Positions 4,061-40,750 of a stretch of 64,000 nt of DNA are shown here, in pieces. The position numbers and the translations under genes are program-made. Source of the stretch: Candidatus Bathyarchaeota archaeon (GTDB lineage Archaea > Thermoproteota > Bathyarchaeia > Bathyarchaeales > Bathyarchaeaceae); the NCBI GenBank assembly GCA_963697165.1, contig CAVOMX010000025.1, positions 96,001 to 160,000 on the forward strand. Direction: 5' to 3'. Under the pieces are notes generated by a model. The model searched no databases and was not told the origin of the DNA. It saw only the letters and a list, made by a program, of their open reading frames with translations. Numbering within the stretch: position 1 is the stretch's first letter; each line of letters starts with the position of its first letter.

Positions 4061-4586
4061 ATGCCAGAAGAGAAGATTGTTGTCCTCATGGGGTCTCCAA
4101 GAGATCTACAGTTTGCAGCCAAAATCAAGAGTTTTCTGAAAAAGGAAAAATTTCCAGTCAGTTGCGTTTACAATGTTGCTTCTGCTCATAGGACTCCAGA
4201 AAAACTGTTGAATGACTTGCAAAGGAAATGAGAAAAGCAAAAGCAGTATCGTCTATGTTACGGTTGCTGGTTTGTCGGATGCTCTTTCAGGAGTTGTTGC
4301 AGGTTACACCCGTTTTCCTGTTATTGCTTGTCCTCCGGATTCTGAAGAACATGGAGGCATTAAGGTTTTTTCTTCGACTGCGATGCCTAATGGGATCCCT
4401 GTTGCCTATGTTGCTAAGCCAGAAAACGCTGCTCTAGCTGCTATCAGAATTTTTGCCTTAACTAACCCTGAACTAAAAGAACAATTGGACAAGTTTAAGC
4501 AAAAAATGGCAAAAGCAGTCTACGATGGAGCAGAAGAAGTAAAGAAAATAACCGAAAAAAAAGACGTTAATAGACTAGCAGTCTAA
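4061..4586 (+). CDS. purE: AIR carboxylase PurE (class II-like), one apparent frameshift near 4225
   Basis: From ATG 4061 reads MPEEKIVVLMGSPRD...VASAHRTPE, then continues in the 4212..4586 frame with VAGLSDALSGVVAG...PVIACPP...NAALAA. Confidence 0.9.
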
Positions 4587-4632
4587 GAAAAAGTTTGTTT
4601 TCAAAAATCAGCTGTTATTAGTCTCCTAATAT
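4587..4632 (-). repeat. 46-bp dispersed intergenic repeat, copy 1
   Basis: Reverse complement ATATTAGGAGACTAATAACAGCTGATTTTTGAAAACAAACTTTTTC is 40/46 identical (ungapped) to 42791-42836. Confidence 0.8.
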
Positions 4633-4725
4633 GACGGCGTATTCTTCAGAACTGGTTATGTTTAGTTGTTGTGGACCAGCGTAACTTATAAGAAAACCTC
4701 GCCAATGAAAAAGGTGTGGAACGCT

Positions 4726-5802
4726 ATGTCTAAGAAGCTTACTTACTCTGAGGCGGGCGTGGACAGGGAAACGAGGGTAAAATCTAAAGAAGCTCTGTCT
4801 ATGTTGAAGCAGACCTACACTTTGGGCAAATACGGAAAAGTCGTTGAGCTGCCTTACGGTAACATCTTCCTTGCAGGCGACCGCTACCTAGACCTTGTAA
4901 TAGAGGGGGTTGGAACCAAAGTTCTCCTGGCGCAGCTAGCCGACAAGTACGACACCATCGGAGTGGACGGGGTTGCAATGGCAGTCAACGACGTGATACG
5001 CTCAGGCGCTACTCCTTTGGCTTTGGTTGACAACTTTCATGCCCACGTCTCCGACCCAGATTTGGTTAGAGAGTGGTTGAAGGGTATAGTGAAGGGCGCA
5101 GAAGAGTCGAATTGTCCAGTTCCCGGAGGCGAAATCGGAGACGTAGCATCCATCATAAAGGGTTTAACCGAAGGAAAAGGCTTCGACTTGATTGTCGCCA
5201 GTGTAGGTGACGTTTTAGAAGAGAATATTATCACTGGAACAGCCATCAAGGCGGGGGATGTTGTTGTGGGCATACGAAGTTCGGGTGTTCACAGCAACGG
5301 AATCTCGTTGGTAAGAAAAGTTCTGTTCAAGGAGTGGGGTGGCAAATACGAGCCCTTCGATGTTCCAGACGGCTTCGACAGGGAAGTCGTTTACGAGGCA
5401 TTGGAGCCTACAAAAATTTATGTTAAATCTTTCCTGAACACCACAAAACAGGTCAAAGTGAAAGGTGCAATTCACATTACAGGAGATGCCTACGTCAAGT
5501 TTGACCGATTTATGAAGTATTCCAAAGGAATCGGCTTCGAGTTCGATAACTTCAAACCACAACCAATCTTTGGGCTGATTCAAGAGACCGCGCCTGAGGT
5601 TGCCGGCGTAATAACCGATGAGGAGATGTTAAAAACATTCAATATGGGCTGGGGCTTCGCCATTGTAGTAGACAAGAACGAAGAAGACGAGGCAATATCA
5701 GTAATCGAGAAAAGCGGAGCAGAAGCCGAAAGTGTCGGAAAGGTAACGGATTCGGGAAGAATTGTTGCAAGATACAAAGACAAAAAGCTGGAGCTACGGT
5801 AA
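4726..5802 (+). CDS. purM: Phosphoribosylaminoimidazole (AIR) synthetase
   Basis: TYSEAGVD, EGVGTK, AMAVND, GGE, SSGVHSNG, HITG and TFNMGWG. Confidence 0.95.
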   Translation: MSKKLTYSEAGVDRETRVKSKEALSMLKQTYTLGKYGKVVELPYGNIFLAGDRYLDLVIEGVGTKVLLAQLADKYDTIGVDGVAMAVNDVIRSGATPLALVDNFHAHVSDPDLVREWLKGIVKGAEESNCPVPGGEIGDVASIIKGLTEGKGFDLIVASVGDVLEENIITGTAIKAGDVVVGIRSSGVHSNGISLVRKVLFKEWGGKYEPFDVPDGFDREVVYEALEPTKIYVKSFLNTTKQVKVKGAIHITGDAYVKFDRFMKYSKGIGFEFDNFKPQPIFGLIQETAPEVAGVITDEEMLKTFNMGWGFAIVVDKNEEDEAISVIEKSGAEAESVGKVTDSGRIVARYKDKKLELR

Positions 5803-5872
5803 AGGGTTTAACTTTTCATTTAAATTTTTAAATAGATAAGATTTAAATTTTGATTTTTTACTAACAATCACA

Positions 5873-6121
5873 ATGTATCGCGCAAGAATCGAAGTCAGCC
5901 TCAAACCGGGGCACTCAGACCCAGAAGGAGAAATGACAGTCCAATCCCTAAAGGAACTAAAGTTCTCCGCCAAAAAAGTCAACGTAAGCAAAGTTTACAC
6001 AATAGTTTTTGAAGCCGAAAACAAACAGAAAGCCGAACAGGCAGTAGAAGAGATGTGCAGAAAACTCCTTGCTAACCCAACAAAAGACAACTACAGCTTC
6101 AAAATAGAGGAAGAAAAATGA
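5873..6121 (+). CDS. purS: FGAM synthase subunit PurS
   Basis: LKPGHSDPEG and KLLANP motifs; immediately upstream of purL. Confidence 0.95.
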   Translation: MYRARIEVSLKPGHSDPEGEMTVQSLKELKFSAKKVNVSKVYTIVFEAENKQKAEQAVEEMCRKLLANPTKDNYSFKIEEEK

Positions 6122-8493
6122 GCCGCTACGTCAAAAAAGACGTGCCCTTCGAACTCGTAGAAATAAACCTGAAAAACGCTGACGACAAGCAACTCGCCAA
6201 AATCAGCAGCGAAATGGGAATCGGCTTAAACCATAGCGAAATGAGGCTGGTACAAAATTACTTCTCACGCAAAAACCGTAACCCAACAGACGTGGAACTA
6301 CAGACCATCGGACAAACATGGTCTGAGCACTGTTACCACAAAACCTTCAAAGGAGACATAAAAACGCCAGAAGGCGAAATCCGTAGCCTATTCAAAACCT
6401 ACATCGCCAAAGCAACAGAAGAACTAGACCCCGAATGGTGCATATCCGTGTTCGAGGACAACGCGGGAATAATCGAGTTTGACAAAAACTATGCAATCGC
6501 AGCAAAGGTTGAAACCCACAACCACCCCTCCGCCATAGAGCCTTTTGGAGGAGCTGCCACAGGAACAGGCGGTGTAATACGCGACATACTCGCAGTTTGG
6601 GCTGACCCCATAGCATGCACAGATGTGCTCTGTTTTGGTCCACTAGATTATGATTACAATAAGCTTCCTCCCGGAACAAAACACCCAAAATACGTTTACA
6701 GAGGCGTAGTTGCGGGGATAGGCAGCTACGGAAACAACATGGGAATCCCAACAGTCAACGGGGCCATAAACTTTGACGAAAGCTACGTCGGCAACGTAGT
6801 AGTCTACTGTGGTTGTGTTGGGATTCTTCCAAAAGTCAAGTTTGTGAAAGACACCAGAGCAGGAGACATAGCACTTCTTGTTGGCGGAGAAACCGGAAGA
6901 GACGGAATCCACGGCGTCACCTTCGCCTCGGCAGAACTAACCAAAGAATCCGAGGAAATTTCACGTCCCGCAGTTCAAATCGCAAACCCCATAGAGGAAG
7001 AACGAGTCAAACGAGCCATAGTTAAGTTGCGAGATGAGGGTTTAGCCTCAGCCATAACAGACATAGGCGGAGGCGGAATCTCGTGTGGAACAGGAGAAAT
7101 GGCTGAACGCTCAAACCTTGGAATTCACGTTTACCTAGAAAAGATTCCCCTAAAGTATCAGGGCTTGACGCCATGGGAAATCTACGTCTCCGAATCACAA
7201 GAACGGATGCTCATCTCTGTTCCAGAAAAGAACTTGGAGAAAGCCTGGAAATTTTTGAAACCGAAAACGTCAAGGCAACATCCATAGGCAAATTCACAAC
7301 GGACGGAATCCTACAAGTAACATACAGGGGACAAACCAGTCGCGGAACTGGACATCGACTTCGTTTTTGATCCCCCAAAATTTGTGGGAACCACAGAATG
7401 GCAGCCACTCAAACTGGAAAGGCCAACATTTCCAGAGCCAACAGACCTAACCAAAGAACTCTTTGGGCTGCTTTCTTTGCCGAACATCGCAAGCAAAGAA
7501 TCGGTGATAAGAACCTACGACCACGAAGTTAAAGGAAACACGGCACTAAAGCCCCTACAAGGCAAGTATGGCGGACCAAATGACGCTGCAGTCCTAAAAC
7601 CCTTACCAGATTCGTGGAAGGGAGTAGTCATCTCCAGCGGAATGAACACCAACTACGGCAAAATCGACACATACTGGATGGCAGCCTCAGGAATAGACGA
7701 GGCAATAAGAAACAATGTTGCCGTGGGCGGAAGAAGAATCGCACTTCTTGACAACTTCACTTGGGGAAACCCACAAAAGCCCGACAGACTCGGCTCGCTA
7801 GTACGCGCATGCAAGGCGTGCTACGATTTTGCCAAGGGCTTCCAGACGCCATTTATTTCAGGAAAAGACAGTCTCTACAACGAATCGCCAATGGGGCCAG
7901 TAACGCCAACGCTGCTAATAACAGCAATCGGAGTAACCCCGGACATACGAAAAACGGTATCCATGGAGCTAAAACAGCCCGGAAACATCATTTACATGGT
8001 CGGCAAGACCTACGCCGAGCTGGGAGGTAGCCACTACTACCAAAACAGAGGCTTCCTAGGAAACTCTGTTCCAAAAGTGAGAATAGAACAGGCAAAGAAA
8101 ACAATGGATCGGATTACAGAAGCCATCGACAAAGGCTACTTACGGTCATGCCACGACCTTTCAGAAGGAGGATTAGCAGTTGCCTCTGCGGAGATGGCTT
8201 TCAGCAGCGGATACGGAATAGAACTGGACCTCAGGAAGGTTCCCAGAACCAAAGAATTAACTGCAGAAACGATTTTGTTCTCTTCTCGGAATCAAACAGC
8301 AGATTCCTAGTTGAAGTAACAGAAAAACACAGAGACAGACTTCGAAGCCCTAATGAAAGACACAGATTGCGCTGAGATTGGCAAAGTCAAGAAGGACGCT
8401 TATCTTTCTGTTACTGGCTTGGATGGCAAACAGAAGATTCACGCCGATTTAGAGGAATTGAGGAGACGCTGGAAAAGCGTCCTAGGAGCATAA
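6118..8493 (+). CDS. purL: FGAM synthase subunit PurL, split by several apparent frameshifts (about 7250-7380 and 8255-8340)
   Basis: TWSEHCYHK, KVETHNHPSAIEPFGGAATG, SESQERM, YDHEV, ISGKDSLYN, CHDLSEGGL and FSESNSRFLVEV spread over consecutive frames. Confidence 0.93.
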
Positions 8494-8498
8494 GTTGC

Positions 8499-9317
8499 AT
8501 GAAGGCAGAAGAGATTCGCGTCTGCGTCATGAGGGTCGGCGGAACAAACTGCGACGCCGAAACCAAAAGAGCCTTTGATGAACTGGGCGCTAGGGCAGAT
8601 GTGCTTCACCTCAACGAGATAGTGAAGAACCGAAATCTTCTAGATTATAATGCGCTTGTTTTTCCGGGCGGATTCTCGTATGGCGACTACGTAAGGGCTG
8701 GAGCCATCTGGGCTACCGGAACACTAACAAAACTTCGCAAAGACCTGAAACAGTTCGTTGAGGAAGAGAGACCAATCTTGGGAATCTGCAACGGCTTTCA
8801 GGTTCTAGTTGAAGCAGGACTATTGCCCGCCTTCGAGGGAATCAGCGAGTACCCCGAGGCAACTTTGGCAACCAATATTCCGATTGGGTACCGCTGCAAG
8901 TGGATTTACCTTAAGCACAAAAATTCTGGAAACTGCCTCTTCACAAAAAACATTCCAAGAGACAAAGTATTGCACATACCTGTGGCTCACGGAGAAGGAC
9001 GTTTCCTGTTTGCAAAAGAAAACGAAACACGTTACCTAGAGAAGCTGTATGATAACGATCAACTCGTATTCAGATACTGCAACAAAGAAGGCGACTATCC
9101 AAATGGAGAGTTTCCCATCAACCCCAACGGAGCATTCCACGACATCGCAGGCATCTGCAATCCCGCAGGAACAGTTTTTGGTTTAATGCCACATCCTGAA
9201 AGAGCATTTTATGGTTGGCAGTTGCCTGACTGGACAAAAACAGAGTCTGCGCCAATGTATGGGGACGGAAAACTGGTTTTTGAGTCGATGATGGATTACC
9301 TGAAGAGGCGCTTCTAG
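8499..9317 (+). CDS. purQ: FGAM synthase glutaminase subunit
   Basis: GTNCD, PGGFSYGD, GICNGFQ, AHGEG and MPHPER. Confidence 0.96.
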   Translation: MKAEEIRVCVMRVGGTNCDAETKRAFDELGARADVLHLNEIVKNRNLLDYNALVFPGGFSYGDYVRAGAIWATGTLTKLRKDLKQFVEEERPILGICNGFQVLVEAGLLPAFEGISEYPEATLATNIPIGYRCKWIYLKHKNSGNCLFTKNIPRDKVLHIPVAHGEGRFLFAKENETRYLEKLYDNDQLVFRYCNKEGDYPNGEFPINPNGAFHDIAGICNPAGTVFGLMPHPERAFYGWQLPDWTKTESAPMYGDGKLVFESMMDYLKRRF

Positions 9318-10217
9318 AGGTCTTTTAGGTCTGCTAACTGTGGTAGTCCGGTTCTGGCGCCCATCTTTGCGACGCATCGGGAAGCAACAAAGTTTCCCAG
9401 CCTTCCACACTCAAACAAATCTTTTCTTCTTGGTAAGTCCGTAGATGAAGCCTGCACAGAAAGCGTCGCCAGCGCCAGTCGTATCCACCGCCTCCACATT
9501 GTAAGCTTCAATCAGGTGGCTCTCTTTCCCGTCCGAGACGTAGCAGCCCCTTTTGCCAAGCTTAACCGCAACTAACTCAGCACCCAACTCTAGGAACTTC
9601 TTAGCTCCTTCTCTGTAGTCCTGCCCAGTAAGCAGTTTAACTTCATTCTCGTTGGGAAACACTGCATAGCTTCTTCTGATTAGTGGCTTTAGCGCCGCCA
9701 AACCTTTTCTTGCATAGAGTGCTCCGGGGTCAAAACAGGTTTTCACGTCAGAAAGCTTGGTTATGAGCCTTTTTTGTGCGTTGAAGGGCTTTTCTGCAAC
9801 AAACGATGACAGATGCAGAAACTGTGTGCCAGAAACATAATCGATGTTGATGTCGTTGAAGTCCAACTGGTCGTTAACTCCCGGATCAACATACAATGCT
9901 CGGTCTCCCTTCGGGTCGATGTATCCCATGACCGTGCCGCTTCTGCCGTTCTCTGAGACAGTTATGCCGTTGACGTCAACGCCTTCCTGTCTAAACTCAT
10001 CCAACAGAAACTTTCCTTCACGGTCAGCGGCAACCTTCCCTATATAGCCAGTTTTCAGTTCCAGCCTAGCTAAGCCCACAACAGTGTTGGCTGCCGAGCC
10101 TCCAGCGGATTCCTTGAAGTCCGTGACGAAACCCTCTTCCTCTTCTTTGGCTATCATGTTAACCTTGAAGAGCTTGTCCAAGTTGAGGGCGCCGAACCCA
10201 ACAACATCAAAAGTCAT
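9314..10217 (-). CDS. PfkB/ribokinase-family nucleoside kinase (EhaT-like); frameshift near 9420 joins the C-terminal 9314..9511 frame
   Basis: GGSAAN, FDPG, PNENE, VKLGKRG, DTTGAGDAFCAG and the C-terminal GNFVASRCV..GAR. Confidence 0.9.
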
Positions 10218-11119
10218 CAAAACAGCCCCCGCAGGCGTATTTTGTGTCTGCCCAGTTTTCCGCCATAATTACCCGCAGAAACTTTTACTACTCCATCCAC
10301 TTTTGCGGCGGCTTGTATGCCAGCCTTCATTGCAGCTTTCACTGCTTGCATTGAGGTGCCGTTTATTACAATCTCGGGAATATACTTCACGTTTTCTGGA
10401 ACCTTCGATTCTGCTCCCAACTTTTCCTTCAATGACGAACAGTATAGATGATTTGTGGTAGGACCAATCAACGGAAACTTGGTTTCAGGCTTTGAACCCG
10501 CAGAACAAACATCAAAGGGCGTTATGACGCCCGGAACCTCATGTATGGCATCTAACGCTTTTTGTCCCGCATCCATGACTGCCTTTTTGGTTTTGCACAT
10601 GAACCAGAAGTTGGCGCCCATCACACCTTTAGCGTAACCCAGCTCCGTTTCTATCAAAAAGTCAGAAACCATCAAAGGAACAACAATCAAGTTTCGCCCA
10701 TACCGCTGTTCTATCCACTCAAAACCGTCCCCACAGTGACCAACCCGCTCCATCATCCCAATCTTTCCATCAGCCTTAACCAAAGCATCAAAAACTGCAG
10801 TGAACGGCTTCACCAAAATGTCCTGCCGTATCCTAAAAGACAACTCAGTCTCAAACTTTTTCATAGACAAGTCCAGCGGCTTATTTTCGTCGATTCCTCC
10901 CCAAAACTGCAAAACAACGCCTTCCCGTCCGTCTGGCGTTTCTTTTCGGGTTAACCATTTTTCGATGCCGCCTTCGATTCTGCCGATAACTATTGCTGGC
11001 GTGGCTGTTGCATGCAGCGCTGCCCGTTCTAACACTTCTTTGTGGTCAGCGGTGACGATGACTCTGGAAAGTATTCCGTCGAAAGCTTCTGCGTATGTGT
11101 CTTCGATTTCAGCCGTCAT
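10217..11119 (-). CDS. Formylmethanofuran:H4MPT formyltransferase paralog (Ftr-like, EhaS-like)
   Basis: [47 protein letters not shown] and [10 protein letters not shown]. Diverges from canonical Ftr (GHCGDG, CSAGSK). Confidence 0.88.
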
Positions 11120-11137
11120 AGAGTCCCCCTTCTTATG

Positions 11138-12244
11138 TTATCCTAACTTTCCTATAGCCTCTCCCCTCACGGTCTTCCTGAAAACGCGGCTTTCTCTCAT
11201 CAACCGCTCCATAGTATCGGCGGTTACTTGTTCAACCTGAGGAAAACCTTCAGGAAACAACAGAGCCATCCGCTCACCTAATTCGGGAACAGTACAGTAT
11301 TTCTCAAGCCCAGAGGAGCCCCAATCATTAACCAGCCTAAGCGCTCCCTCTTTACCCAGTCTATTGAATACTTCCGCAAGAACAGAGGTTACTGTCGTGT
11401 CGCCTGAGAGCACCGCAACATCTGATTCCCGCACAGAATAATCGTTGCCGTTAAAGGAGACGGCTAATCCACCGTTCTTTCTTACTAGCTTTAATGCTGG
11501 GGCGTCTGTTATGCTGTCGCCAACATACATTACCCTGTCAAGACTGCAATTCAGCTTCGTAACGATATCCTGCACGGCTCGTGCCTTTTCTGTTCCTCCA
11601 ACAGGATTAACCTCACGTAGCATCCTGCCCGACTCCATCGTGGGGATTTCCTTCCAGAATATTTCATCCAGCATCTCCAACGTTTCTTGGTCTCTCTGCG
11701 AAAACTTGTTTAATGAACTTGCGTTTTTGGGAATTTGAATCATGGGCAACTCCGCTATCTCCTTTCCTAACTCCTTTAGCCTCTTCGTCTCTTCGGCGGG
11801 TATGCCGTATTTGTCCATGTTCAGGCGCGTGCAGTAGGTGTTCTCGAATGGGAAACCCGTCACTGTGCACAGGGCAAAGATATACTGCTCGTAGCTGGTG
11901 CTGACTATAAACGAGGGCATAAGTTTCCTGACGAAAGTGAGCGTGTTTTGGGCTCCATGAACCAGCAGAACGTTTCTGGCAGAAAAATCCTTTATTTTTT
12001 GGTCTGTGGCACCGTAAGCCTTCAGGAAGGGAAGAATCAGCCGCAGGGTGTCTCCAGCCTTGTAGTCTGGCTTTTTGACAACATCAGAGAGAACATCATC
12101 ATATTTGCTTACAAGAGCAAAGAAGCGGTCTCCGTCCGGAACAAAACTGCTTGTCAACTCATAGGCGTTGTCGTTCTTTGAGATGGGTCCCTCACAGTCG
12201 GATACGAAAACATGCGGATTCGTTTGGGACACTTCTGCTGACAT
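11138..12244 (-). CDS. HAD-superfamily phosphohydrolase (COG4030/EhaR-like)
   Basis: Motif I variant DCEGP(ISKNDN), motif II IVSTSY, motif III K (GGTEKA), motif IV YVGDSITD and SFNGN. Confidence 0.85.
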   Translation of the reverse strand: MSAEVSQTNPHVFVSDCEGPISKNDNAYELTSSFVPDGDRFFALVSKYDDVLSDVVKKPDYKAGDTLRLILPFLKAYGATDQKIKDFSARNVLLVHGAQNTLTFVRKLMPSFIVSTSYEQYIFALCTVTGFPFENTYCTRLNMDKYGIPAEETKRLKELGKEIAELPMIQIPKNASSLNKFSQRDQETLEMLDEIFWKEIPTMESGRMLREVNPVGGTEKARAVQDIVTKLNCSLDRVMYVGDSITDAPALKLVRKNGGLAVSFNGNDYSVRESDVAVLSGDTTVTSVLAEVFNRLGKEGALRLVNDWGSSGLEKYCTVPELGERMALLFPEGFPQVEQVTADTMERLMRESRVFRKTVRGEAIGKLG

Positions 12245-13647
12245 CAGCGCCCCCTCAATTCTTCCATATGCTTCACGCTTTTATCGATATGCACCTTCAC
12301 TGCGATGTCGTTTCGGTTCCAGAGTGCCCCGCCTTTAATCGCAACTATGCCCTCAAGAGACTTTTCTCTTGCCTCATTGATGTCGTCGCCTATGCCCACA
12401 ACGGCGACTGTGCGAGAGCCAAGGGCAAAGTTTTCTCCATCCCGAAGTTCCATTGACCCCGGATACACCCGGATGCTGTTCTTTTTGAGAAGCTTATCTG
12501 CTCCACTCAAATCCACGGCAGTATCAATCTCGGTCTTGTTTATGCGGTCGGGAAACTTTGTTGCGTAGCCGCCGTAGTCTGGCGGAACCTTATAGGTCAC
12601 AACTGTTGCCTGCTTCCTGAAGTTGACTTTTCTGAGGCTTCCATCTATCATGTCGTAGCATACATCAATGAAATCGTCTTCTAGGATGGGCAGCAGATTC
12701 ATTATTTCTGGGTCTCCAGGTCTGCTGTTGACCTCCAAAATTTTGGGTCCCTTGCTTGTGTGAATAAAGGCGGCGTAGAAGGGGACTCCCTGCAGTTCGG
12801 GGTTGCTGCCTTTTCCTTTCAGTTCTTCAAATACTCTGTTTACGAGCTCGATTTCTTTTGCACGGTCCATCGAATTCATGAATGGCAGTATGTTTCCAGC
12901 ATTTTTGTAGGCGCCCATGCCTCCGGTGTTGGGTCCTTTATCGTCGTCGAAGGCTCGTTTGTAGTCTCTGGTTTCGGGCAGGGGAACCAAACGTTTTCCG
13001 TCACAGAAGGCTTGGAAGCTGGATTCTTCGCCCAAAACCTTCTCTTCGATTATGACTGGACCATGTTCATAATTTGAGATGAAATGCTCAAAAACCTCTT
13101 CGGGCGTGTTGAAGTGGTCTCCCCATACTCCGACTCCCTTTCCTGCAGTTGCCTTGTCGGGTTTCACTGCTACTTGGTTGTCGAGTTCTTTTAGCCAAGC
13201 ATACACATTCTTCTTAACCTGTGTTGTGCTGCTGTAGTCTTTGGGGTCGAAAACCTTGAATTGTGGATTAACTTCGGGTGCAACCTTCTGGAATAGTTGG
13301 CGTTGAGCTATTTTGCTTGCTTCGATAGCGTATCTTTTGGTTGGGCAAATTATCGGTATTTTTGTTTCTTTTTCGATGACATCTCGCACGCCCGCAATAA
13401 TCGGTTTTTCTGGACCAACAATACCGAAGTCTATGCTGTCTCTATATTTTTTGGCGAACTTTGCGATTTCCGTCAGGTTGAAGTCTGAGATAACAGTGTG
13501 CTTCTCGGCATGTTTCACGTTGAAGGGGTTATTCTGTTTATCAACAACGTAGAATTTTGGGGTATATTCTTCGCTGCGGACAAAAGCGTCTATCATGGCG
13601 GCTGCTCTTGAGCCATACGAAACTACGAGGATGCCAACTTTCTCCAT
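12244..13647 (-). CDS. purD: Phosphoribosylamine-glycine ligase
   Basis: VGPEKP, IEASK, GKGV, IEEK..GEE, DYKRAFDDDKGPNTGGMG and EVNSRPGDPE. Confidence 0.95.
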   Translation of the reverse strand: MEKVGILVVSYGSRAAAMIDAFVRSEEYTPKFYVVDKQNNPFNVKHAEKHTVISDFNLTEIAKFAKKYRDSIDFGIVGPEKPIIAGVRDVIEKETKIPIICPTKRYAIEASKIAQRQLFQKVAPEVNPQFKVFDPKDYSSTTQVKKNVYAWLKELDNQVAVKPDKATAGKGVGVWGDHFNTPEEVFEHFISNYEHGPVIIEEKVLGEESSFQAFCDGKRLVPLPETRDYKRAFDDDKGPNTGGMGAYKNAGNILPFMNSMDRAKEIELVNRVFEELKGKGSNPELQGVPFYAAFIHTSKGPKILEVNSRPGDPEIMNLLPILEDDFIDVCYDMIDGSLRKVNFRKQATVVTYKVPPDYGGYATKFPDRINKTEIDTAVDLSGADKLLKKNSIRVYPGSMELRDGENFALGSRTVAVVGIGDDINEAREKSLEGIVAIKGGALWNRNDIAVKVHIDKSVKHMEELRGR

Positions 13648-13685
13648 CAGGGCTCACCATAACATGTCTGAATACAAACGTATGG

Positions 13686-15173
13686 TTAGTTTATGGAATT
13701 TTCGTATATTCTTCCTTTTTCGTTGTATCCGTTCTCGAATCTTTCCTTCATTTCGTCAGCCAACTTCTGGGCCATTGGCGTGGGATACTTGCCTGTGATG
13801 CAACCCAAACACAGGTCCTCTTTGTCTAAGCCCGTGGCTCTGACGAGCCCATCAACTGACTGGTAATTCACTGCGTCCGCGCCCACTATCTCGGCTATCT
13901 CCTCTGCATCATGCTGTGAACCTATCAGTTCCCTGTAGGTTGCCATGTCTACTCCATAGAAGCATGGACCAATAATTCTGGGGAACGTAATGAAAAGATA
14001 GACCTTGTTTGCGCCCATTTTGCGCAGCTTGTTAACCACAACTTTGGTGGTGTCGCCTCTGACTATGCTGTCATCCACCACAGCAACATTTTTTCCCGCC
14101 AGCTTATGGTCAACAATATTGATTTTCCTGTCTATCGTGCTGTATCGTTGATCTGAGAGCAGAATAAAGGCACGTTCAGCCACGTATCTGTGTCGTCTAG
14201 AGGCTCTTTCCCATCGTATGCCTGTTAACTCGTGGTACCCATAGGCCGCATCGTTGCCTGTTTCGGGCATCGACATAATCATGTCCACTTTGCTTGTGGT
14301 TTCGGGGTATTCCCACGCAAAGTTTCTTCCAAACGCTTCTCGGACCTCATAGACGTACCTGTTTCCCAGCATCGAGTCTGGCCTTGCAAAGTAGGCAAAC
14401 TCGAAGGCACAAAGTGCCTTTCTTTCTCCAGTGCACAATTGTTTTCTTGTGAAGCCATCTTTTGAGGAGACCACAAGCTCTCCGGGGTTCACCTCGAAAC
14501 TGAAGTCTAAACTGTTAATGTCTAGCCCCACGGATTCTGAGGATACCGCACAGGTTGTCCCGTTTTTGCTGCAGCCACAGCAGAGGGGTCTTATTCCTTG
14601 GGGGTCTCTGAATGCGAACAGTTCTCCTTTGTCTGTTAGTCCAGCCACAGAGAATGCGCCTTCGATTTCTTTCATGCACCGTTTTACGGAGGAGGCTAGG
14701 TCGCCGTCTTTTCCTTGTCTTAATAGTTTTCTTGAGATCAGTTCTGCGTCGTAGTTGAATCGGAAGTTCGGGTATTCTTCTCTTATCTCTTTTACTATGT
14801 CAGGAGTGTTGACGACGTTGCCGTTGAAGGCGATTGCTATCTGTTTTTCTCCTCGTTTCTCCAGTATTGGCTGGGTGCTTTTTACAAGTGATTCGTGATC
14901 TGTTCCGCCAGATGTGGAGTATCTGACGTGTCCTAATCCAACGGATCCGGGCAGTTCTGTTAGCCACTTTTCGATGTCTTCCTTTTGTATTTTCGGAACA
15001 AGATCTAGACCTTTTTTGCTGTGGAATGTTCCGTCAAAGGTGAGGAAGCCGTGGGATTGGTGTCCGCGATGGTTTTGGGCTCGTAGTCCCCAGTAGACGT
15101 ATGGGAACACTGACTTTTGTGTAAAGTCTTGTGCTGCGAAAACCCCGCATGCTTCTTTTAACTGTTCGAGCAT
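13686..15173 (-). CDS. purF: Amidophosphoribosyltransferase
   Basis: Propeptide followed by EACGVF (N-terminal Cys), GHVRYST, CAFEFAYFARPDS, VDDSIVRGDT, PCFYGVD and CLGC. Confidence 0.96.
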   Translation of the reverse strand: MLEQLKEACGVFAAQDFTQKSVFPYVYWGLRAQNHRGHQSHGFLTFDGTFHSKKGLDLVPKIQKEDIEKWLTELPGSVGLGHVRYSTSGGTDHESLVKSTQPILEKRGEKQIAIAFNGNVVNTPDIVKEIREEYPNFRFNYDAELISRKLLRQGKDGDLASSVKRCMKEIEGAFSVAGLTDKGELFAFRDPQGIRPLCCGCSKNGTTCAVSSESVGLDINSLDFSFEVNPGELVVSSKDGFTRKQLCTGERKALCAFEFAYFARPDSMLGNRYVYEVREAFGRNFAWEYPETTSKVDMIMSMPETGNDAAYGYHELTGIRWERASRRHRYVAERAFILLSDQRYSTIDRKINIVDHKLAGKNVAVVDDSIVRGDTTKVVVNKLRKMGANKVYLFITFPRIIGPCFYGVDMATYRELIGSQHDAEEIAEIVGADAVNYQSVDGLVRATGLDKEDLCLGCITGKYPTPMAQKLADEMKERFENGYNEKGRIYENSIN

Positions 15174-15387: not shown

Positions 15388-16599
15388 ATGCGGAACATAC
15401 TTGTTAACGGTTCGAAACAGGCGCCTCTTGAGAAGCAACCCATCGAGATTGTTGAACGCAAGGGTGTCGGTCATCCTGACTCTATGTGTGATGCCATAAT
15501 GGATCAGGTTTCAGTGGAACTAAGCAAAGCGTACCTGAAGGAGTTCGGGACGATTTTGCATCATAATACTGACAAGTCGCTGCTGGTTGCCGGCGATGTT
15601 GAGTGCAAGTTTGAAGGCGGAGTTGTAAATGAGCCTATGCTTCTTATTTTCGGCGACAGGGCAACCTTTGAAGCTGACGGAAAAACTATTCCTGTTAACG
15701 AAATTGCTATCCAAACGGCTAAGGATTGGTTGAAGGAGAATCTTCGGTTTGTTGATCCTGAAAAGCACATGAAGTATCAAGTGGAGATTAGGCATGGTTC
15801 TCAGGGACTAACTGACATCTTCAAGAGAGAAACCTGCATGTTTGGCGCTAACGACACTTCTGCTGCTGTGGGCTATGCGCCATTAACTCGTACAGAGAAT
15901 ATGGTTCTAACGACTGAACGTTACGTGAACTCTAAAGAATTCAAGAAACGGTTTCCTGCAAGCGGCGAAGACGTAAAAGTCATGGGCTACAAGAATGGAA
16001 ATGTCCTGAATCTGACTATTGGTATGGCTTTTGTTGACCGCTTTGTTACTGACGTTAAAGATTACATGCGCAAAAAAGCTGAAATTCACGCGGATGTGCA
16101 GGAGTGGATTGACAAGAAGAGCACATTTGACAAGGTCAACGTTTTTATTAACACTTTGGATGTTGAAGACCGTGGCGTAGACGGCATCTTTTTGACTGTC
16201 CTGGGTACATGCGCTGATGGCGCTGATTCTGGTCAGGTAGGAAGAGGAAACAAAGTCAACGGTGTTATTTCGTTGAATCGGCCTATCGGCACAGAAGCGG
16301 CTGCGGGAAAGAATCCAGTCAGCCACGTCGGAAAAATCTACAACGCATTAACACACCAAATTGCAAGAAAGATATGCGACGAAGTTCCTGAAGTTGCAGA
16401 AACTTGTGTTTGGCTTCTTAGTCAGATTGGTGTACCGATTGATCAGCCCGCTATCGCCGCTGCGCAGGTAGTCATGAACAACGGAGCCACTCTCGACAAC
16501 AAAGTGCAGGCTAGAATAACAGAAGTAATCGACGCTGAACTGGCAAACATAGAGGACTTCTGCAAACAATTAACCTACGGAAAAATCTCAGTCTGGTAG
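15388..16599 (+). CDS. mat: Archaeal S-adenosylmethionine synthetase
   Basis: EIVERKGVGHPD, ANDTS, GEDVKVMG, GQVGRGN and AGKNPVSHVGKIYN. Confidence 0.96.
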   Translation: MRNILVNGSKQAPLEKQPIEIVERKGVGHPDSMCDAIMDQVSVELSKAYLKEFGTILHHNTDKSLLVAGDVECKFEGGVVNEPMLLIFGDRATFEADGKTIPVNEIAIQTAKDWLKENLRFVDPEKHMKYQVEIRHGSQGLTDIFKRETCMFGANDTSAAVGYAPLTRTENMVLTTERYVNSKEFKKRFPASGEDVKVMGYKNGNVLNLTIGMAFVDRFVTDVKDYMRKKAEIHADVQEWIDKKSTFDKVNVFINTLDVEDRGVDGIFLTVLGTCADGADSGQVGRGNKVNGVISLNRPIGTEAAAGKNPVSHVGKIYNALTHQIARKICDEVPEVAETCVWLLSQIGVPIDQPAIAAAQVVMNNGATLDNKVQARITEVIDAELANIEDFCKQLTYGKISVW

Positions 16600-16873: not shown

Positions 16874-17527
16874 TTGCCAAGCCCAGGTCAAGAACTATCA
16901 AGCATCGATTTCGAATCAATGATCGGCGGTCCATTAGTAGCAGTTATCAATGCACAAGCCCAAGCAGCAATGTCAACAGTCAATTTCATAAAAGAAGTAG
17001 GCTTTAAAAAACCAAGTACCGAAGAAAACGCAGGTGGAGACACCACTACTGAAGAGCCAATCTATGTTACCTTCAAATATCCAAAAGAGCTTAGTCCATA
17101 CGTCCCTGCTATACCCGGAGATCCATTAGCAACACCACCCATACCTCCAACAGATGCAATACCCGCAGAATATGAAACACAAGAACTTCAAGTGCCCATC
17201 TTGACACTTCTTCCTATTCCATTCATACGGATAGAAGAAACAACAATAGACTTCAACGCAAAAATAAATTCTGTTGAATACAGAAAAACCAACACAAGCC
17301 TCAAAGTTGACGCTTCACTAGAAGCAAAAGCAGGCTGGCTATGGGGCTCAGCCAAACTAAAAGTATCAACATCATTCCAACGAACAACCCAACAAGGTAA
17401 CTCAGTCAATAGAACCTACTCATTAGCAATACATGTAAAAGCAGTTCAAGATGAAATGCCCGCAGGAATGGAAAAAATGCTAGGCATCCTTGAAAGTGCC
17501 ATAACCTCGACTCCAGCAAGCTCATAA
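16874..17527 (+). CDS. DUF2589-family protein
   Basis: DFESMIGGPLVAVINAQAQAA..TVNFIKEVGF, VPILTLLPIPFIRIEE..IDFNAKI and YSLAIHVKAVQDEMPAGMEKML match the recalled DUF2589 pattern; GGTGA RBS upstream. Confidence 0.75.
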   Translation: MPSPGQELSSIDFESMIGGPLVAVINAQAQAAMSTVNFIKEVGFKKPSTEENAGGDTTTEEPIYVTFKYPKELSPYVPAIPGDPLATPPIPPTDAIPAEYETQELQVPILTLLPIPFIRIEETTIDFNAKINSVEYRKTNTSLKVDASLEAKAGWLWGSAKLKVSTSFQRTTQQGNSVNRTYSLAIHVKAVQDEMPAGMEKMLGILESAITSTPASS

Positions 17528-17586
17528 CCTAATTCAAAGATGAACAAATAACACTCCACCTTTTTTTGTTATAATGGAGGAAAAAA

Positions 17587-18273
17587 ATGCCCAATCTTGG
17601 AGATTTTATCGGCCATCTATTAGCTGAATTCACAATCGCAAGAATGCAAGCTGACGTAGAATCAGTAAGAGTAGCCGAACTCTATTCAAACCATCCACTA
17701 TTAAAAAACATGCCAATTCCTCATTTTCGTTTACCTTCAGTAGAATTGGATATACCAGTTGCAATTAAAGAAATTCAAGAACAACCAAACATGACACCCC
17801 GAGGGGCACCGACCCTTGAAGAAACAAGAAAAGCATTTGCCAACACACTCGCAAAAACACTAAGTGAAGAAAAAATACGTCTAACACCAGAACAAAATAA
17901 AAAACTAACAACAGCGCTAAATAGAACAATTAGGTCCTTAACTCAACCACCCGAAGTAGCCGTTGACATCAATAGAATTGCGAATGAACTAGCTAACACT
18001 GCATCCAAAACACTAGCAGGACCAACTGGACCAGTAGACACAAAGATACAAGAGAAATTAGAAACAAAACTAAAAGAATATGCACGAATAGAATTTATTA
18101 ACCTTCGTAAACCACCCTCACGATTACAAGTTTTAGTCACCACTTCAGAAATCCGTGAAGCAGGACCAAGCGAGGTTATTACTAAAATACACTTGAAGCT
18201 CACCGAAGAAGCCTTTGAATGGACATCATATGAATCAGATGGAAAGAAGCAAGATCGACTAATTATCGAGTAG
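17587..18273 (+). CDS. Hypothetical protein, possibly a distant DUF2589-like partner
   Basis: GGAGG RBS. N-terminal helix LGDFIGHLLAEFTIARMQAD, then PIPHFRLPSVELDIPV echoes PIPFIRIEETTIDF of the preceding gene. Confidence 0.7.
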   Translation: MPNLGDFIGHLLAEFTIARMQADVESVRVAELYSNHPLLKNMPIPHFRLPSVELDIPVAIKEIQEQPNMTPRGAPTLEETRKAFANTLAKTLSEEKIRLTPEQNKKLTTALNRTIRSLTQPPEVAVDINRIANELANTASKTLAGPTGPVDTKIQEKLETKLKEYARIEFINLRKPPSRLQVLVTTSEIREAGPSEVITKIHLKLTEEAFEWTSYESDGKKQDRLIIE

Positions 18274-18280
18274 ATATAAA

Positions 18281-18850
18281 ATGTTGCGCATTCTAAATCT
18301 GGAAGAAATCCAGAAAATGCTTTTGCGCACCTCAGATTTAATTGACCTAAACGTACAATATAATCTCAACTTCATTCTCGATGTAAAAGACTGGTTATCA
18401 GAACTTGAGAAAATCCTCAAGAACAACAACATGCCAATATCCGCTAATATCGCTTCAATGCGCGGATTAATAATCTCTACTGAACGTGGAAATATACCAA
18501 TAGGCATCGAATTTAAAGGTCGAGCAACTAGTCGAAAAATTCGAGAAGCAACTTCAAGCAAAATAATTCATCAGGCAGTTGATCTAATTTCGAACGCTAT
18601 TCAGAAGGATGTAGAACGAGTCAAGGAAGCAGAACGCATAACAAGGCAACTAGTTGCAATAGCAAAAAGTAAGGGTTATATCAAGAAAATTCTAAGCCAA
18701 GACAATTATACAGAACAACTGAAAGCATTCTGGCAAAAAATGGCTAATGACCAAGTTTTATCACAGGGGATAATTAGTGTGGAAGGGCTTGTTGGTCCAC
18801 AGGATGCGCTTGTTATTTTAGATCGTACAATAACCGCGGATTTAAGTTAG
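18281..18850 (+). CDS. Hypothetical all-alpha protein
   Basis: 189-aa ORF 7 nt after the previous stop; same AT-rich composition. Confidence 0.65.
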   Translation: MLRILNLEEIQKMLLRTSDLIDLNVQYNLNFILDVKDWLSELEKILKNNNMPISANIASMRGLIISTERGNIPIGIEFKGRATSRKIREATSSKIIHQAVDLISNAIQKDVERVKEAERITRQLVAIAKSKGYIKKILSQDNYTEQLKAFWQKMANDQVLSQGIISVEGLVGPQDALVILDRTITADLS

Positions 18851-19221: not shown

Positions 19222-21030
19222 TTATTGTTGGAGCTTTGCCTCTTCTGGGTTCTTTTTAAGTACCGCTCGTATTCTTCTGACGCCGGATGCGATGCCTTTT
19301 TCTTTTGTTATTTTGAAAAACCCTAATTCAATTGTGTTACCTACATGAGGTCCACCGCAAATCTCTGTCGCGAAATTGCCGATTTTATAAACTGATACAG
19401 TATTACCGTATTTGTCATCAAACACTGCTTGCGCACCACATGTTTTTGCTTCTTCAACAGTCATTTCTTCTCTAACCACTATCAAAGCTTTCTTAATTTG
19501 TTCGTTAACCAATTTTTCAATTGCATCTAGTTCTTTAGCATTCAGAGGTCTATCGAAATTAAAGTCAAAACGCAACCGCTCTGGAGTAATATTCGATCCT
19601 CTTTGAACAATATCCCTATTTTTTAAGACCACCCGCAAGGCTTCATTTAGCAGATGCGTTGCTGTATGAAGTTTTTTAGTTTCATTAGATGCGTCACTCA
19701 AACCGCCTTTGAACAGCTTGGCTGCGCTTGCAGATGAAACTTTTTGATGGCTTTCATATTCAGTCCTGAACTCCTCCTCGTCAACTTCAATACCAATCTC
19801 TGCAGCAAGTTCTTTTGTCAACTCAATAGGAAACCCGAAGCTCTGAAACAACAAGAATGCATGTTTTCCGTCGATTCTTGAACCATTTTTTGCTATTTGG
19901 TTGAATTTTCTCAAACCTTTTTCGAGAGTTTTCTTAAACTTGGCTTCTTCTTTACTCAGCTCGTCAAATATGCTAGTTTGTTTCTTTCTAAGCTGGGGAT
20001 ACTCGGACTCATTAAGCGTTATGACAATCTCAGCAATATCGTTCAAGAAATCTTTTTCAATTCCAATTAATCGCCCAAATCTTATTGCACGCCTGATTAA
20101 CCGACGTAAAACATACCCTCGATCGACATTGCTTGGCTTAACTCCTCGTTCGTCACCCAAAAAAAATGTTGAAGCACGAATATGATCAGTGATAATTCGG
20201 ATAGATCGTTCTTGAACAGGAGTTGGCAAACTAATTGAAGCAAGCTCCTCCACTTTCTGTGCTATTGGCCGAATTGTGGCAATCCCAAACACGTTTTTCT
20301 TCCCTTCAAGCATTGCGGCAGTATGCTCAACACCCATTCCAGTATCAACGTTCTTCTGTTTTAAGAGCTCATAACAACCTGAAACAGTTTTGTTATACTC
20401 CATAAAAACGTCGTTCCAGAGCTCAAAATATTTACCACATGAACAACCAGGTCTACAGGATGGACCGCAGGCAGGTTTTCCAGTATCATAGAACATTTCA
20501 GTACAAGGTCCACAAGGTCCTGTGTTACCAACTGGACCCCACCAATTATCTTCCTTTGACAAAAAAAAGATGTGATCATCGGGAACACCTAAAACGCTCC
20601 ATGACTCATAACTCTCAGTGTCTCTTGGAGCATTTTTGTCTCCCGCAAACACGGTCACAAACAACCGTTTTTTGTCCAAGTTAAGCCACCTCTTGTTTGT
20701 GAGAAACTCGTAGCTTAAGTTGATGGCTTGTTTTTTGAAATAATCACCTAGAGACCAGTTACCCAACATTTCAAAAAAAGTTAAGTGTGAATCATCTCCA
20801 ACACATTCGATGTCCCCAGTCCTAAAACATTTTTGAACATTCACAAGTTTCTTTCCAAGCGGATGAGACTGCCCCAAAAAGTAGGGTACAAGGGGATGCA
20901 TACCCGCCGGAGTGAAAAGAACTGTTGGATCATATTCTGGAATAAGAGGAGAATTTGGAATTAAATGATGCTGGTTTTCACTAAAGAACTTCAAATACAG
21001 TTTTTTTAGCTTTTTAGAATCTATGACCAT
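19222..21030 (-). CDS. alaS: Alanyl-tRNA synthetase, short bacterial-like form without C-Ala
   Basis: DPTVLFTPAGMHPL, QKCFRTGDI, FFEMLGNWS, GPCGPCTE, VDTGMG, DHIR, editing HTATH and CGGPH; ends after GVRRIRA. Confidence 0.95.
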   Translation of the reverse strand: MVIDSKKLKKLYLKFFSENQHHLIPNSPLIPEYDPTVLFTPAGMHPLVPYFLGQSHPLGKKLVNVQKCFRTGDIECVGDDSHLTFFEMLGNWSLGDYFKKQAINLSYEFLTNKRWLNLDKKRLFVTVFAGDKNAPRDTESYESWSVLGVPDDHIFFLSKEDNWWGPVGNTGPCGPCTEMFYDTGKPACGPSCRPGCSCGKYFELWNDVFMEYNKTVSGCYELLKQKNVDTGMGVEHTAAMLEGKKNVFGIATIRPIAQKVEELASISLPTPVQERSIRIITDHIRASTFFLGDERGVKPSNVDRGYVLRRLIRRAIRFGRLIGIEKDFLNDIAEIVITLNESEYPQLRKKQTSIFDELSKEEAKFKKTLEKGLRKFNQIAKNGSRIDGKHAFLLFQSFGFPIELTKELAAEIGIEVDEEEFRTEYESHQKVSSASAAKLFKGGLSDASNETKKLHTATHLLNEALRVVLKNRDIVQRGSNITPERLRFDFNFDRPLNAKELDAIEKLVNEQIKKALIVVREEMTVEEAKTCGAQAVFDDKYGNTVSVYKIGNFATEICGGPHVGNTIELGFFKITKEKGIASGVRRIRAVLKKNPEEAKLQQ

Positions 21031-21330
21031 AAATAGGGGTTTGGTCAAAACTGCTTAATATCCATACCGTAACTATTCAATCAACTAAATTGGAATGTAG
21101 TCTTTCTGTAAGACTTGAAAAGGCACTTAGTTATTGAGGGAGTTCTAAAGGCATTGATTCTCCCTTTTTTAGTTCTGAAATCAAAAGAGCTTAAAAGAGA
21201 TAAAAATTTCTCACTTTAGGTCAACAAAAAAATCAAAATGTAAACTTGCAAAAGCTAAGAAAACAAAAAGATAAAAAAACAAAATAGAGGGAAAGCCTCC
21301 CACCGTTCAAGAAAACGGAAAATGAACCGT

Positions 21331-39254: not shown

Positions 39255-40750
39255 CTACTTTTCAAGCATCATTTTTCGGGTGGAGTAACGCTGAACCACA
39301 GACTTTAGCTGCATGTCAGCTTCCTCTAGCCTGCTTTTCTGTTCTTTGAGGCTGGTTTTTGACTGGCTTGTCAACTGTATACGGTTTTTGAGCATTCGTT
39401 TAACTTCTGCTGGAGCTGGACCGCCCATGGCTTTGTGACTTTCAACACATTTTTGGGGGTCGATTGAGTCTTTGATGTCCGCCAGTTTAACGGCTAGAAC
39501 GATTCCCGCAGAATCTTTAGCGGTTTCATTTAACAGTTCAGGTGTCAAGTCAGAAAGCGCCAGCTTCTGGTCCAGCAAGGTTTTGACGACGACACCAACT
39601 ATCTTGTGTGAAGTCCTGAAGGGAACATTATACTTCTTTACAAGCAGGTTAGCCAGTTCCGTCGTGGTTGAGTAATTGAGTATCTGCTTGCTGAAGACGT
39701 TCTTGTTTATGTTCAAGTTTTTAGCTAGCTCAGAAAGCATATTCACTGACGCTGAGACGGTTTCGAGTGACTCCCACAGTTTAGGAGTAAGCTCCTGCAG
39801 GTCAAGATTGTAACCCGAGGGCAAAGCCTTCATTGTTGTTGCTGATGCTACAAAGTTGCCGAGAACCTGACTCATCCGCGCCCTGATGACCTCTAGAACA
39901 TCTGGATTCTTTTTCTGGGGCATTATGCTGCTTGTAAACGCGAAGCTTTCTGGAAGATCAATTATTCCAAAGTCAGGGGAGCTCCAGACAATCAGGTCTT
40001 CAGCCATTCTGCTAACGTCAATAGCGAGTAATGTGAGGTCAGCAAGGGTTTCTAGAACAAAATCGCGGCTGCCGACCGCATCTATGGAGTTCTCTAGCAC
40101 TTTGCTAAAGCCCAGCAGTTCGGCGGTGCGGTCGCGGTTTATTGGGAAGCTTGTGGTTGCTATAGCTCCTGCGCCCATGGGGCACATGTTAACTCGGGGA
40201 AAAGTCTCTTCTAACCGTTTCAGGCTCCGCTCCAGCGCATCCACGTAGGAAACTAGAATGTGAGCGAATGTTACGGGCTGTGCAGGATGCAGATGCGTAT
40301 AAGACGGAACCACCGTTTCGGTGTGTTTTTCAGCCAGCTCCACTAGAGAGTCCTGCAGCTTTACTACGACATTCATCAGTTCTAGGATGCTTATTCGAAG
40401 TGCCATCCTTATTGCTGTTGACACTTGATCGTTTCGACTTTTTGCTATGTGCAGGTTTCCGCCATATGTCTAAGCCAACTTTTTTGTTGATTTCCTCTTC
40501 GACTGCTAGGTGAACGTCTTCAAGTGACTGGTCTAGTGCCATTTTGGGGTCTAGTTCTAACTAGGGCTTGGAGTAGCTGGGCACCGATTTTAGAATCAAT
40601 TATTTTCTGCTCAATAAGCATGGTTACGTGGGCTTGGTTGATTTTGATTACTTCTTCCAGTAGCTTTTGGTCGCTTTTTATGGATGCAGTAAATTCAACG
40701 GCATCTTTTCGTGCAGAGCCTATTCTTCCTCCACGCAACAGCTTAGACAA
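39255..40750 (-). CDS. argH: Argininosuccinate lyase, split by frameshifts near 40460 and 40545
   Basis: LRGGR start, EDVH, YTHLHPAQP and SSIMPQKKNPD across three frames. Confidence 0.93.

Follow-up and report, generated by a model that had tools for sequence, protein, structure and literature searches.

Which enzyme formylates glycinamide ribonucleotide (GAR) in archaea that carry neither PurN nor PurT? The question is raised by a stretch of 64,000 nucleotides (hereafter the window; positions 96001-160000 of contig CAVOMX010000025.1, our G000:C25) from a sediment Bathyarchaeia genome of 1.99 Mb, assembled in 25 contigs and 81% complete, whose nearest public relatives are Bathyarchaeia, Candidatus Bathyarchaeum among them. 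In this window, purF and purD are followed on the minus strand by genes encoding a protein of the haloacid dehalogenase (HAD) superfamily, a paralog of formylmethanofuran:tetrahydromethanopterin formyltransferase (Ftr), here termed Ftr2, and a kinase of the PfkB/ribokinase family. From comparative sequence evidence, we consider it likely that Ftr2 performs the third step of purine synthesis, and we lean towards the reading that the divergent purD, HAD, Ftr2 and PfkB genes constitute a module converting GAR to formylglycinamide ribonucleotide (FGAR) in archaea devoid of PurN and PurT. The genes of the cluster are listed below.

13686-15173, minus strand: purF, amidophosphoribosyltransferase, purine step 1 (ATG at 15173; TIGR01134 323 bits, cut-off 350; GATase_6/7 Pfam matches)
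12244-13647, minus strand: purD, GAR synthetase of a divergent subtype, 467 aa, step 2 (GARS_N/A/C Pfam matches; TIGR00877 257 bits, cut-off 288)
11138-12244, minus strand: HAD-superfamily protein of the AF1437 family, equivalent of EhaR, probable phosphatase (weak HAD Pfam matches only)
10217-11119, minus strand: Ftr2, Ftr paralog, equivalent of EhaS, proposed GAR or GAR-riboside formyltransferase (PF01913 and PF02741; NF002554 348 bits, cut-off 297)
9314-10217, minus strand: PfkB/ribokinase-family kinase, equivalent of EhaT, frame-broken in the assembly (PF00294 159 bits)

The operon and its Ftr paralog

All five genes are co-oriented and belong to the families named in the initial annotation, which had been made from the sequence alone, and the junctions it described can be read directly: TGATG overlaps occur at the purD stop/HAD start and at the Ftr2 stop/kinase ATG, while the HAD-Ftr2 spacer is 18 nt long and contains GAAGGGGGA. 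The plus-strand genes purE-purM-purS-purL-purQ (4212-9317; steps 4-6) converge on the cluster, again as described. The neighbors of the operon are pur genes, with no hydrogenase genes at the locus, and neither purN nor purT was found in the window. A Pfam/NCBIfam search of the five operon proteins revealed no Formyl_trans_N homology and no ATP-grasp homology of the PurT kind.

Searched against the whole genome at its 81% completeness, the PurN model gave no match, and the PurT model detected nothing beyond weak ATP-grasp similarity (28-34 bits) to carbamoyl-phosphate synthase and a second protein. Two PurP genes lie approximately 5 kb upstream of the window, and formylation of 5-aminoimidazole-4-carboxamide ribonucleotide (AICAR) is therefore covered. 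The genome encodes FwdA (815 bits), Mch (361 bits) and, on contig 6, a canonical Ftr (Ftr1), so that Ftr2 is not its sole Ftr; FolD was not found at the same completeness. The source is a methanopterin organism in which, given 81% completeness, the conversion of GAR to FGAR is the only purine step without an assigned enzyme.

The same gap is on record for other lineages. According to the available portions of PMC3261824 (2011), both purN and purT are missing from Archaeoglobi, four Methanobacteriales (printed as Methanomicrobiales) and Methanopyrus kandleri, and those of PMC9012536 (2022) repeat this gap and add the anaerobic methanotrophic archaea (ANME) of group ANME-1, in agreement with the statement of the initial annotation that several archaea using tetrahydromethanopterin (H4MPT) lack a recognizable GAR transformylase. 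As far as these sources go, GAR formylation is the one de novo purine step without a known enzyme in these groups, to which many Bathyarchaeia are added here. In its accessible part, PMC9012536 treats only Ftr1 as characterized among the Ftr types, and a full-text literature search (few subscription journals, supplements excluded) found no function assignment for Ftr2, EhaR/S/T, AF1437 or COG4030. Archaeoglobi, ANME-1, Methanopyri and Methanococci lie outside our genome sample and are covered through these two papers; the sample itself comprises 151 evenly sampled Bathyarchaeia, 61 genomes of a second archaeal phylum (that of G152, including the genome of locus L034) and, for Ftr2, 131 Methanobacteria, with G and L labels denoting sampled genomes and inspected loci, respectively.

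Both lobes of the Ftr family are present in Ftr2 at full length (PF01913, 148 bits, residues 3-149; PF02741, 196 bits, residues 153-298), and the protein shares approximately 40% identity with the structurally solved Ftr proteins 1m5s, 1m5h and 1ftr and with Ftr1 of its own genome. It scores 244 bits against the FhcD equivalog TIGR03119, below the cut-off of 292.6. An IQ-TREE quick search on 107 family members, 39 of them cluster representatives lacking organism labels, produced a tree with support given solely by the Shimodaira-Hasegawa-like approximate likelihood-ratio test (SH-aLRT), without bootstraps. One clade of 55 rows (SH-aLRT 94) comprises 17 bathyarchaeal, 6 methanobacterial and 22 second-phylum sequences together with 10 unlabeled representatives, and contains every HAD/PfkB-linked Ftr gene in the tree; a second clade of 48 rows (SH-aLRT 99) holds Ftr1 of Bathyarchaeia and Methanobacteria as well as planctomycete FhcD-like proteins. 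Ftr2 does not group with the characterized Ftr enzymes, and Ftr1 copies from the same genomes fall in the other clade; precisely this arrangement, a separate clade with canonical Ftr elsewhere in the genome, had been predicted. The methanobacterial EhaS group is nested inside the bathyarchaeal Ftr2 group (SH-aLRT 95), with 52-68% identity across the two phyla, and because of this nesting a lateral transfer of the trio between Bathyarchaeia and Methanobacteria is suggested.

At the residue level, E249 of Ftr2 corresponds in the alignment to the Glu of YEIVING in 1m5s and, together with 38 further positions, is common to the Ftr1 and Ftr2 clades, being at least 85% conserved in both. The catalytic Glu of M. 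kandleri Ftr is Glu245. In bacterial FhcD the catalytic residue is Glu252, according to the accessible text of PMC6926001. Residues specific to the Ftr2 clade include R98 (55/55 rows), C129 and G219-P220; in addition, Ftr2 lacks the PGG loop of Ftr1 and carries a 9-residue insertion. Ftr2 thus resembles Ftr (1FTR/2FHJ, 1M5H, 1M5S) and FhcD (6S6Y) in its two-lobe fold family, full-length identity and catalytic Glu, whereas it differs from them in its separate clade, its own residues and indels, its pur rather than one-carbon (C1) neighbors, its occurrence in genomes without detected FwdA and its proposed acceptor, which would be the glycinamide amine and not methanofuran.

Linkage, distribution and replacement in the operon slot

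The trio is repeatedly tied to purD and purF, as the initial annotation had anticipated. Across 24 Bathyarchaeia loci, the order purD-HAD-Ftr2 is found in 21, the remaining three being cut by contig ends; PfkB directly follows Ftr2 in 23 (the exception is L022), and purF lies upstream in 18. In deeper-branching Bathyarchaeia, eight further loci hold purD, HAD, Ftr2 and PfkB together despite rearrangement; in G001, for instance, PfkB-Ftr2 and purD-HAD are divergently oriented.

Calling of Ftr2 in the 151 Bathyarchaeia was bimodal, with orthologues at 51% identity and 279 bits or more and Ftr1 copies at no more than 42% and 200 bits. By this measure, Ftr2 is present in 57 genomes, in one of them as a fragment. 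PurT-like genes occur in 13 of the 151, all below the curated cut-off, and PurN-family genes in 54, of which 17 exceed theirs. Only two of the 57 Ftr2-positive genomes have a PurN/PurT-like match, both sub-threshold (G001, PurT, 175 bits; G149, PurN, 101 bits), compared with 65 of the 94 Ftr2-negative ones; the resulting Fisher p of 4e-17 is overstated because the sampled genomes are kin. As for the 29 Ftr2-negative genomes without a PurN/PurT-like gene, 22 also lack purD, and the seven that retain purD all have congeners with PurN, PurT or Ftr2, several of the seven being less than 80% complete. The HAD family was detected in 62 of the 151 genomes, namely all 57 with Ftr2 plus G002, G010, G034, G028 and G140. 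Bathyarchaeia with canonical PurN or PurT lack the HAD and PfkB partners, in contrast to the Ftr2 module, which has both.

These five additional genomes reveal a replacement within the operon. In G034, G028 and G140 the gene order is purF-purD-HAD-PfkB-FolD, with a Formyl_trans_N protein of approximately 281 aa between purD and HAD (L118 2244-10093 for G034; L119, L120/L121); in G034, PurH accompanies the operon on the opposite strand, and in G002 and G010 the genes of this folate version are split into two pieces. The slot protein best matches PurN (62-77 bits, versus at most 44 for PurU; in one example PurN 74, PurU 44 and Fmt 31). It keeps the Asn-His-Asp catalytic set, and its N-terminal loop reads SGRD(A/R/E)AA versus SGRGSN in canonical PurN, the loop that binds the GAR phosphate in the Escherichia coli enzyme. 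Since a PurN-like protein accompanied by FolD, the maker of 10-formyltetrahydrofolate, takes the same position, the slot would encode a GAR formyltransferase, of which Ftr2 would be the methanopterin version; this swap lends strong extra support to the proposal and is the strongest single argument for it. PurN/PurT and Ftr2 would share their product FGAR and their pathway position; their distributions are complementary and, in three Bathyarchaeia lineages, a PurN-like gene occupies the operon slot of Ftr2, whereas they have no sequence or fold kinship and the donor proposed for Ftr2 is a methanopterin-bound formyl group.

The expected anticorrelation with PurN and PurT recurs, with exceptions, in the second phylum. 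Ftr2-like genes (48-58% identity, at least 275 bits) occur in 27 of its 61 genomes, and those included in the tree belong to the Ftr2 clade. PurT was found in none of the 61 and PurN in 35, PurN being missing from 21 of the 27 Ftr2-like-positive genomes versus 5 of the 34 others; among these five, which have no full Ftr2-like gene, two hold Ftr2-like fragments. The Ftr2-like genes are not adjacent to PfkB here. In G309 and G304, Ftr2-like diverges from purE, with GcvH downstream in G309; in G305 it precedes purL-purQ in the same orientation; and in G337, G339 and G336 a HAD homologue follows it. The HAD family is present in 27 of the 61 genomes and tracks Ftr2-like genes mostly without being linked to them: counting the two genomes with only a partial Ftr2-like gene, 25 of 29 Ftr2-like carriers have it, versus 2 of the 32 others. 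In 9 of 12 inspected loci, a PfkB orthologue is either a neighbor of HAD or follows it on the same strand within approximately 1.5 kb. Most HAD loci of the second phylum are flanked by a divergently oriented gene for a type IV prepilin peptidase.

The second phylum also bears on the formyl donor. Mch is present in all 27 Ftr2-like-positive genomes (as a weak match in six), FwdA was detected in eight and not found in the other 19, and those 19 have no Ftr-family match other than the Ftr2-like protein. A role of Ftr2 tied to formylmethanofuran makes little sense where formylmethanofuran dehydrogenase is missing, and the presence of Mch where FwdA was not found supports N5-formyl-H4MPT as donor and an amine other than that of methanofuran as acceptor; we regard this donor as reasonably probable. 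The exchange of a formyl group between N5-formyl-H4MPT and a primary amine lies close to equilibrium (approximately 4 kJ/mol, Thauer's values), so that ATP-driven synthesis of formylglycinamidine ribonucleotide could pull the formylation. The 19 genomes would represent a methanopterin C1 branch lacking formylmethanofuran dehydrogenase.

In Methanobacteria, an Ftr2 orthologue is present in 130 of the 131 genomes, and all 14 inspected loci have the order HAD-Ftr2-PfkB. Spot checks revealed no PurN in five genomes and no PurT in six, which agrees with the available text of PMC3261824. The trio of Methanobacterium oryzae comes immediately after EhaL, EhaM, EhaN, EhaO and two polyferredoxin genes, and the initial annotation had correctly named it as EhaR-EhaS-EhaT, the last three genes of the eha operon in Methanobacteriales. 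These proteins are orthologues of the module in the same gene order (Ftr2 52-68% identical, HAD and PfkB approximately 45-50%); they sit in an energy-converting hydrogenase operon, whereas the trio in the window and in the 24 Bathyarchaeia loci adjoins pur genes. In the accessible part of PMC3087415, EhaS and EhaT are treated as Eha hydrogenase subunits of unknown role.

Candidate reaction route and competing explanations

The HAD protein is a probable phosphatase, as predicted from motifs and modeling. Its motifs D16xE18GP, S115-T116, K220 and G242DSITD247 are invariant in 25/25 orthologues, and a C-terminal tail with R356 and R360 is conserved. Motif I reads D16-C-E18-G-P, with Glu replacing the second Asp of DxDx(T/V), a DxE form reminiscent of enolase-phosphatase E1; motifs II-IV are invariant. 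The AlphaFold2 model has a predicted local distance difference test score of 94. Its best Foldseek match (E 1e-18; template modeling scores 0.78/0.91, 25% identity) is 1y8a, the structure of the Archaeoglobus fulgidus HAD protein AF1437, which comes from structural genomics and has no assigned function, followed by phosphoserine phosphatases, MtnX and cytosolic 5'-nucleotidase III. Upstream open reading frames (ORFs) of approximately 340 aa at L060 and L061 were considered as diverged HAD genes and rejected as unrelated.

The kinase has the PfkB/ribokinase motifs N12, D14, G39-G40-S-A-A-N44 and T247-G-A-G-D251, all invariant in 28 orthologues. By analogy with E. coli ribokinase, these are the N-terminal NxD and GG motifs and the C-terminal TGAGD anion hole with the catalytic Asp. 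The kinase is as far from ribokinases as from nucleoside kinases and 1tyy/1tz3. The last (1TYY/1TZ3), Salmonella aminoimidazole riboside kinase, resembles the module PfkB in belonging to the ribokinase family and, as proposed for the latter, in bringing a purine-pathway riboside that has lost its phosphate back into the ribotide pool; it differs in being distant (70 bits) and a salvage enzyme that is not encoded with a formyltransferase.

PurD itself differs with the context. Where HAD is present (nine genomes plus G101, whose purD is at a contig end), it scores 221-258 bits against TIGR00877 (cut-off 288), versus 362-441 bits in seven genomes without HAD; G105, with a 175-bit partial match, is left out of this comparison. 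The HAD-PfkB-associated PurD is a longer form of approximately 465-475 aa, found in two phyla and with any type of formyltransferase (L118-L120, L124, L127, L128 versus L125, L126). This co-occurrence could reflect co-adaptation or merely shared ancestry.

The gene content, linkage, clade structure and distributions are observed; the chemistry is our proposal. We hypothesize that Ftr2 passes the formyl group of N5-formyl-H4MPT, made by Mch, to the glycinamide amine instead of methanofuran, which would make Ftr2 with Mch the methanopterin counterpart of PurN with FolD. The HAD protein with its DxE motif and the ribokinase-like PfkB would be obligate partners: HAD would take the 5'-phosphate off GAR, Ftr2 would formylate the glycinamide riboside, and PfkB would rephosphorylate the product with ATP to give FGAR for PurSLQ. 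This passage through the riboside is held tentatively, as a reading with slightly less than an even chance. It is favored because HAD and PfkB strictly co-occur with the module in Bathyarchaeia (HAD in 62/62 genomes with it and 0/89 others), because the gene order mirrors the order of reactions and the genes are translationally coupled, and because the kinase has ribose-type motifs and the PurN-like replacement an altered phosphate loop.

Several points weigh against it or against the module as a whole. The riboside route costs ATP and risks losing an uncharged intermediate. Ftr2-like and canonical PurN coexist in 6 of the 27 second-phylum genomes, and Ftr2 coexists with PurN in ANME-2a/2b according to the available part of PMC9012536. 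In G325 (L109 4029-6473) and G317 (L110 1425-3898), canonical PurN with the SGRGSN loop forms an operon purN-HAD-PfkB, so that HAD-PfkB is not everywhere tied to an unusual formyltransferase and the riboside route is strained. The invariant extra Arg of Ftr2, R98, could be a phosphate binder, and would therefore favor direct use of GAR. As for the donor, the accessible text of PMC3261824 cites the view that formyl-H4MPT is no functional formyl donor, and it speaks of N10, not N5. Finally, the sampled genomes are metagenome-assembled and mutually related, so that the counts are not independent, and the SH-aLRT of the Ftr2 branch, from a quick-search tree, lies below the 95 mark.

Part of this evidence fits a different scheme, which appears rather unlikely but is the most serious competitor: Ftr2 would formylate the GAR ribotide directly from formyl-H4MPT, with HAD and PfkB as nucleotidase/riboside-kinase accessories for salvage or buffering. 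Such a scheme would suit R98, the persistence of HAD-PfkB as operon partners of canonical PurN, and the second-phylum Ftr2-like genes that stand apart from HAD-PfkB and beside purE or purL; 1tyy/1tz3 provides a precedent for a PfkB-family purine-riboside kinase. It is harder to reconcile with the Bathyarchaeia, where HAD occurs solely with Ftr2 or an operonic PurN-like protein (62/62) and in none of the 89 others, including 60 with PurN/PurT, as a generic salvage pair should not track the type of formyltransferase. The fixed order purD-HAD-formyltransferase-PfkB and the translational coupling also suggest one unit.

It is improbable that Ftr2 is an ordinary second formylmethanofuran:H4MPT formyltransferase of C1 metabolism, or a part of Eha, placed among pur genes for co-regulation. 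Ftr2 does pass the NF002554 threshold, shares the catalytic Glu and 39 positions with Ftr1, and lies in the eha operon of Methanobacteria, where the available text of PMC3087415 counts EhaS and EhaT as Eha subunits. Against this, it is the sole Ftr gene in 19 genomes without detected FwdA, where no formylmethanofuran would be made; a PurN-like protein with FolD takes its place within the operon; and it is complementary to PurN/PurT and, in two phyla, has a linked purD, purE or purL gene.

The PfkB orthologue of G288 (L111 1476-6552) lies in a cluster purH-purN-FolC-like-HAD_2-PfkB, in which HAD_2 belongs to a different HAD family. PfkB kinases such as adenosine kinase phosphorylate the riboside of AICAR (AICA-riboside), and both points would suit a module acting on that riboside or at the conversion of AICAR to its formyl derivative FAICAR, an alternative kept by the initial annotation that we judge highly improbable and set aside, as AICAR formylation is already covered by the two PurP genes of the genome, the folate-version operon has PurH adjacent with a slot protein best matching PurN, and the module comes after the step-2 gene purD in every case.

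Returning to the riboside route, the proposal of the initial annotation stands in part: the GAR-formylation module is supported by clade, anticorrelation, linkage and swap, whereas the order of dephosphorylation, formylation and rephosphorylation stays conjectural and is strained by the purN-HAD-PfkB operons. A wider picture, possible but speculative, would make step 3 an ATP-spending riboside detour that is fed by a co-adapted PurD, has an interchangeable formyltransferase slot (Ftr2 or PurN-like with FolD), and in Methanobacteria is wired to Eha, which would refill the drained C1 pool. Besides the core claims, the comparison yielded four further results: the replacement in the formyltransferase slot, the operons that join purN to HAD and PfkB, the genomes without detected FwdA, and the divergent form of PurD. 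If the proposal is correct, a methanopterin-dependent GAR formyltransferase would close the purine gap, and formyl groups bound to H4MPT would feed biosynthesis after all. The puzzling EhaR/S/T would then be explained, with the anaplerotic Eha hydrogenase coupled to the withdrawal of C1 units by purine synthesis, and metabolic models for methanogens and sediment archaea would have thousands of annotations as 'Ftr', 'HAD hydrolase' or 'ribokinase' corrected.

Frame breaks and other features of the window

The converging purine genes and the gene on the far side of purF are the following.

4212-4586, plus strand: purE (Pfam/NCBIfam matches)
4666-5802, plus strand: purM (Pfam/NCBIfam matches)
5873-6121, plus strand: purS (Pfam/NCBIfam matches)
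6118-8310, plus strand: purL, with two frame breaks (Pfam/NCBIfam matches)
8499-9317, plus strand: purQ (Pfam/NCBIfam matches)
15388-16599, plus strand: archaeal-type methionine adenosyltransferase, divergent from purF, context only (PF01941 540 bits)

The methionine adenosyltransferase gene keeps its position beside purF in the closest relatives. In the kinase gene, one extra base in an A-run at approximately 9421-9430 breaks the frame 33 codons before the stop, and the conserved C-terminus resumes in the next frame, up to the stop at 9314-9316. Three contigs of near-identical strains from two other public runs have one letter fewer at 9426-9435, one of these contigs being 159 nt long with a single mismatch. 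The purL gene is broken twice, at approximately 7250-7340, and is continuous in the relatives at L006 and L019. Because relatives are intact at both sites and other contigs lack the extra letter, the kinase and purL breaks are probably homopolymer indels of the assembly rather than signs of gene decay. A reading of purL as a lineage-conserved split gene was rejected, since the relatives are continuous and the impression arose from querying with the two window fragments. The kinase and Ftr2 genes are each partly represented among contigs from an RNA library (run X10), a coverage that does not show transcription.

Many genes of the contig are broken or start inside Pfam profiles, often at homopolymers, among them purE at 4212, argH and argG at 39255-41758, and PurP at G000:C25:89537-90065, a pattern that looks like indel errors of the assembly and not like pseudogenes. 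Between the S-adenosylmethionine synthetase and alanine-tRNA ligase genes, a DUF2589 protein and two ORFs of 228 and 189 aa without family matches are encoded at 16874-18850 on the plus strand. The alanine-tRNA ligase itself (19222-21048, minus strand, 608 aa) scores 847 bits against NF002436, a 595-aa model, versus 198 bits against the archaeal TIGR03683, which is unusual for an archaeon. Positions 52001-54000 have a G+C fraction of 0.34 versus approximately 0.45 elsewhere and lie a few kilobases from a phage-type integrase gene (60088-61431); this region may represent an integrated element.

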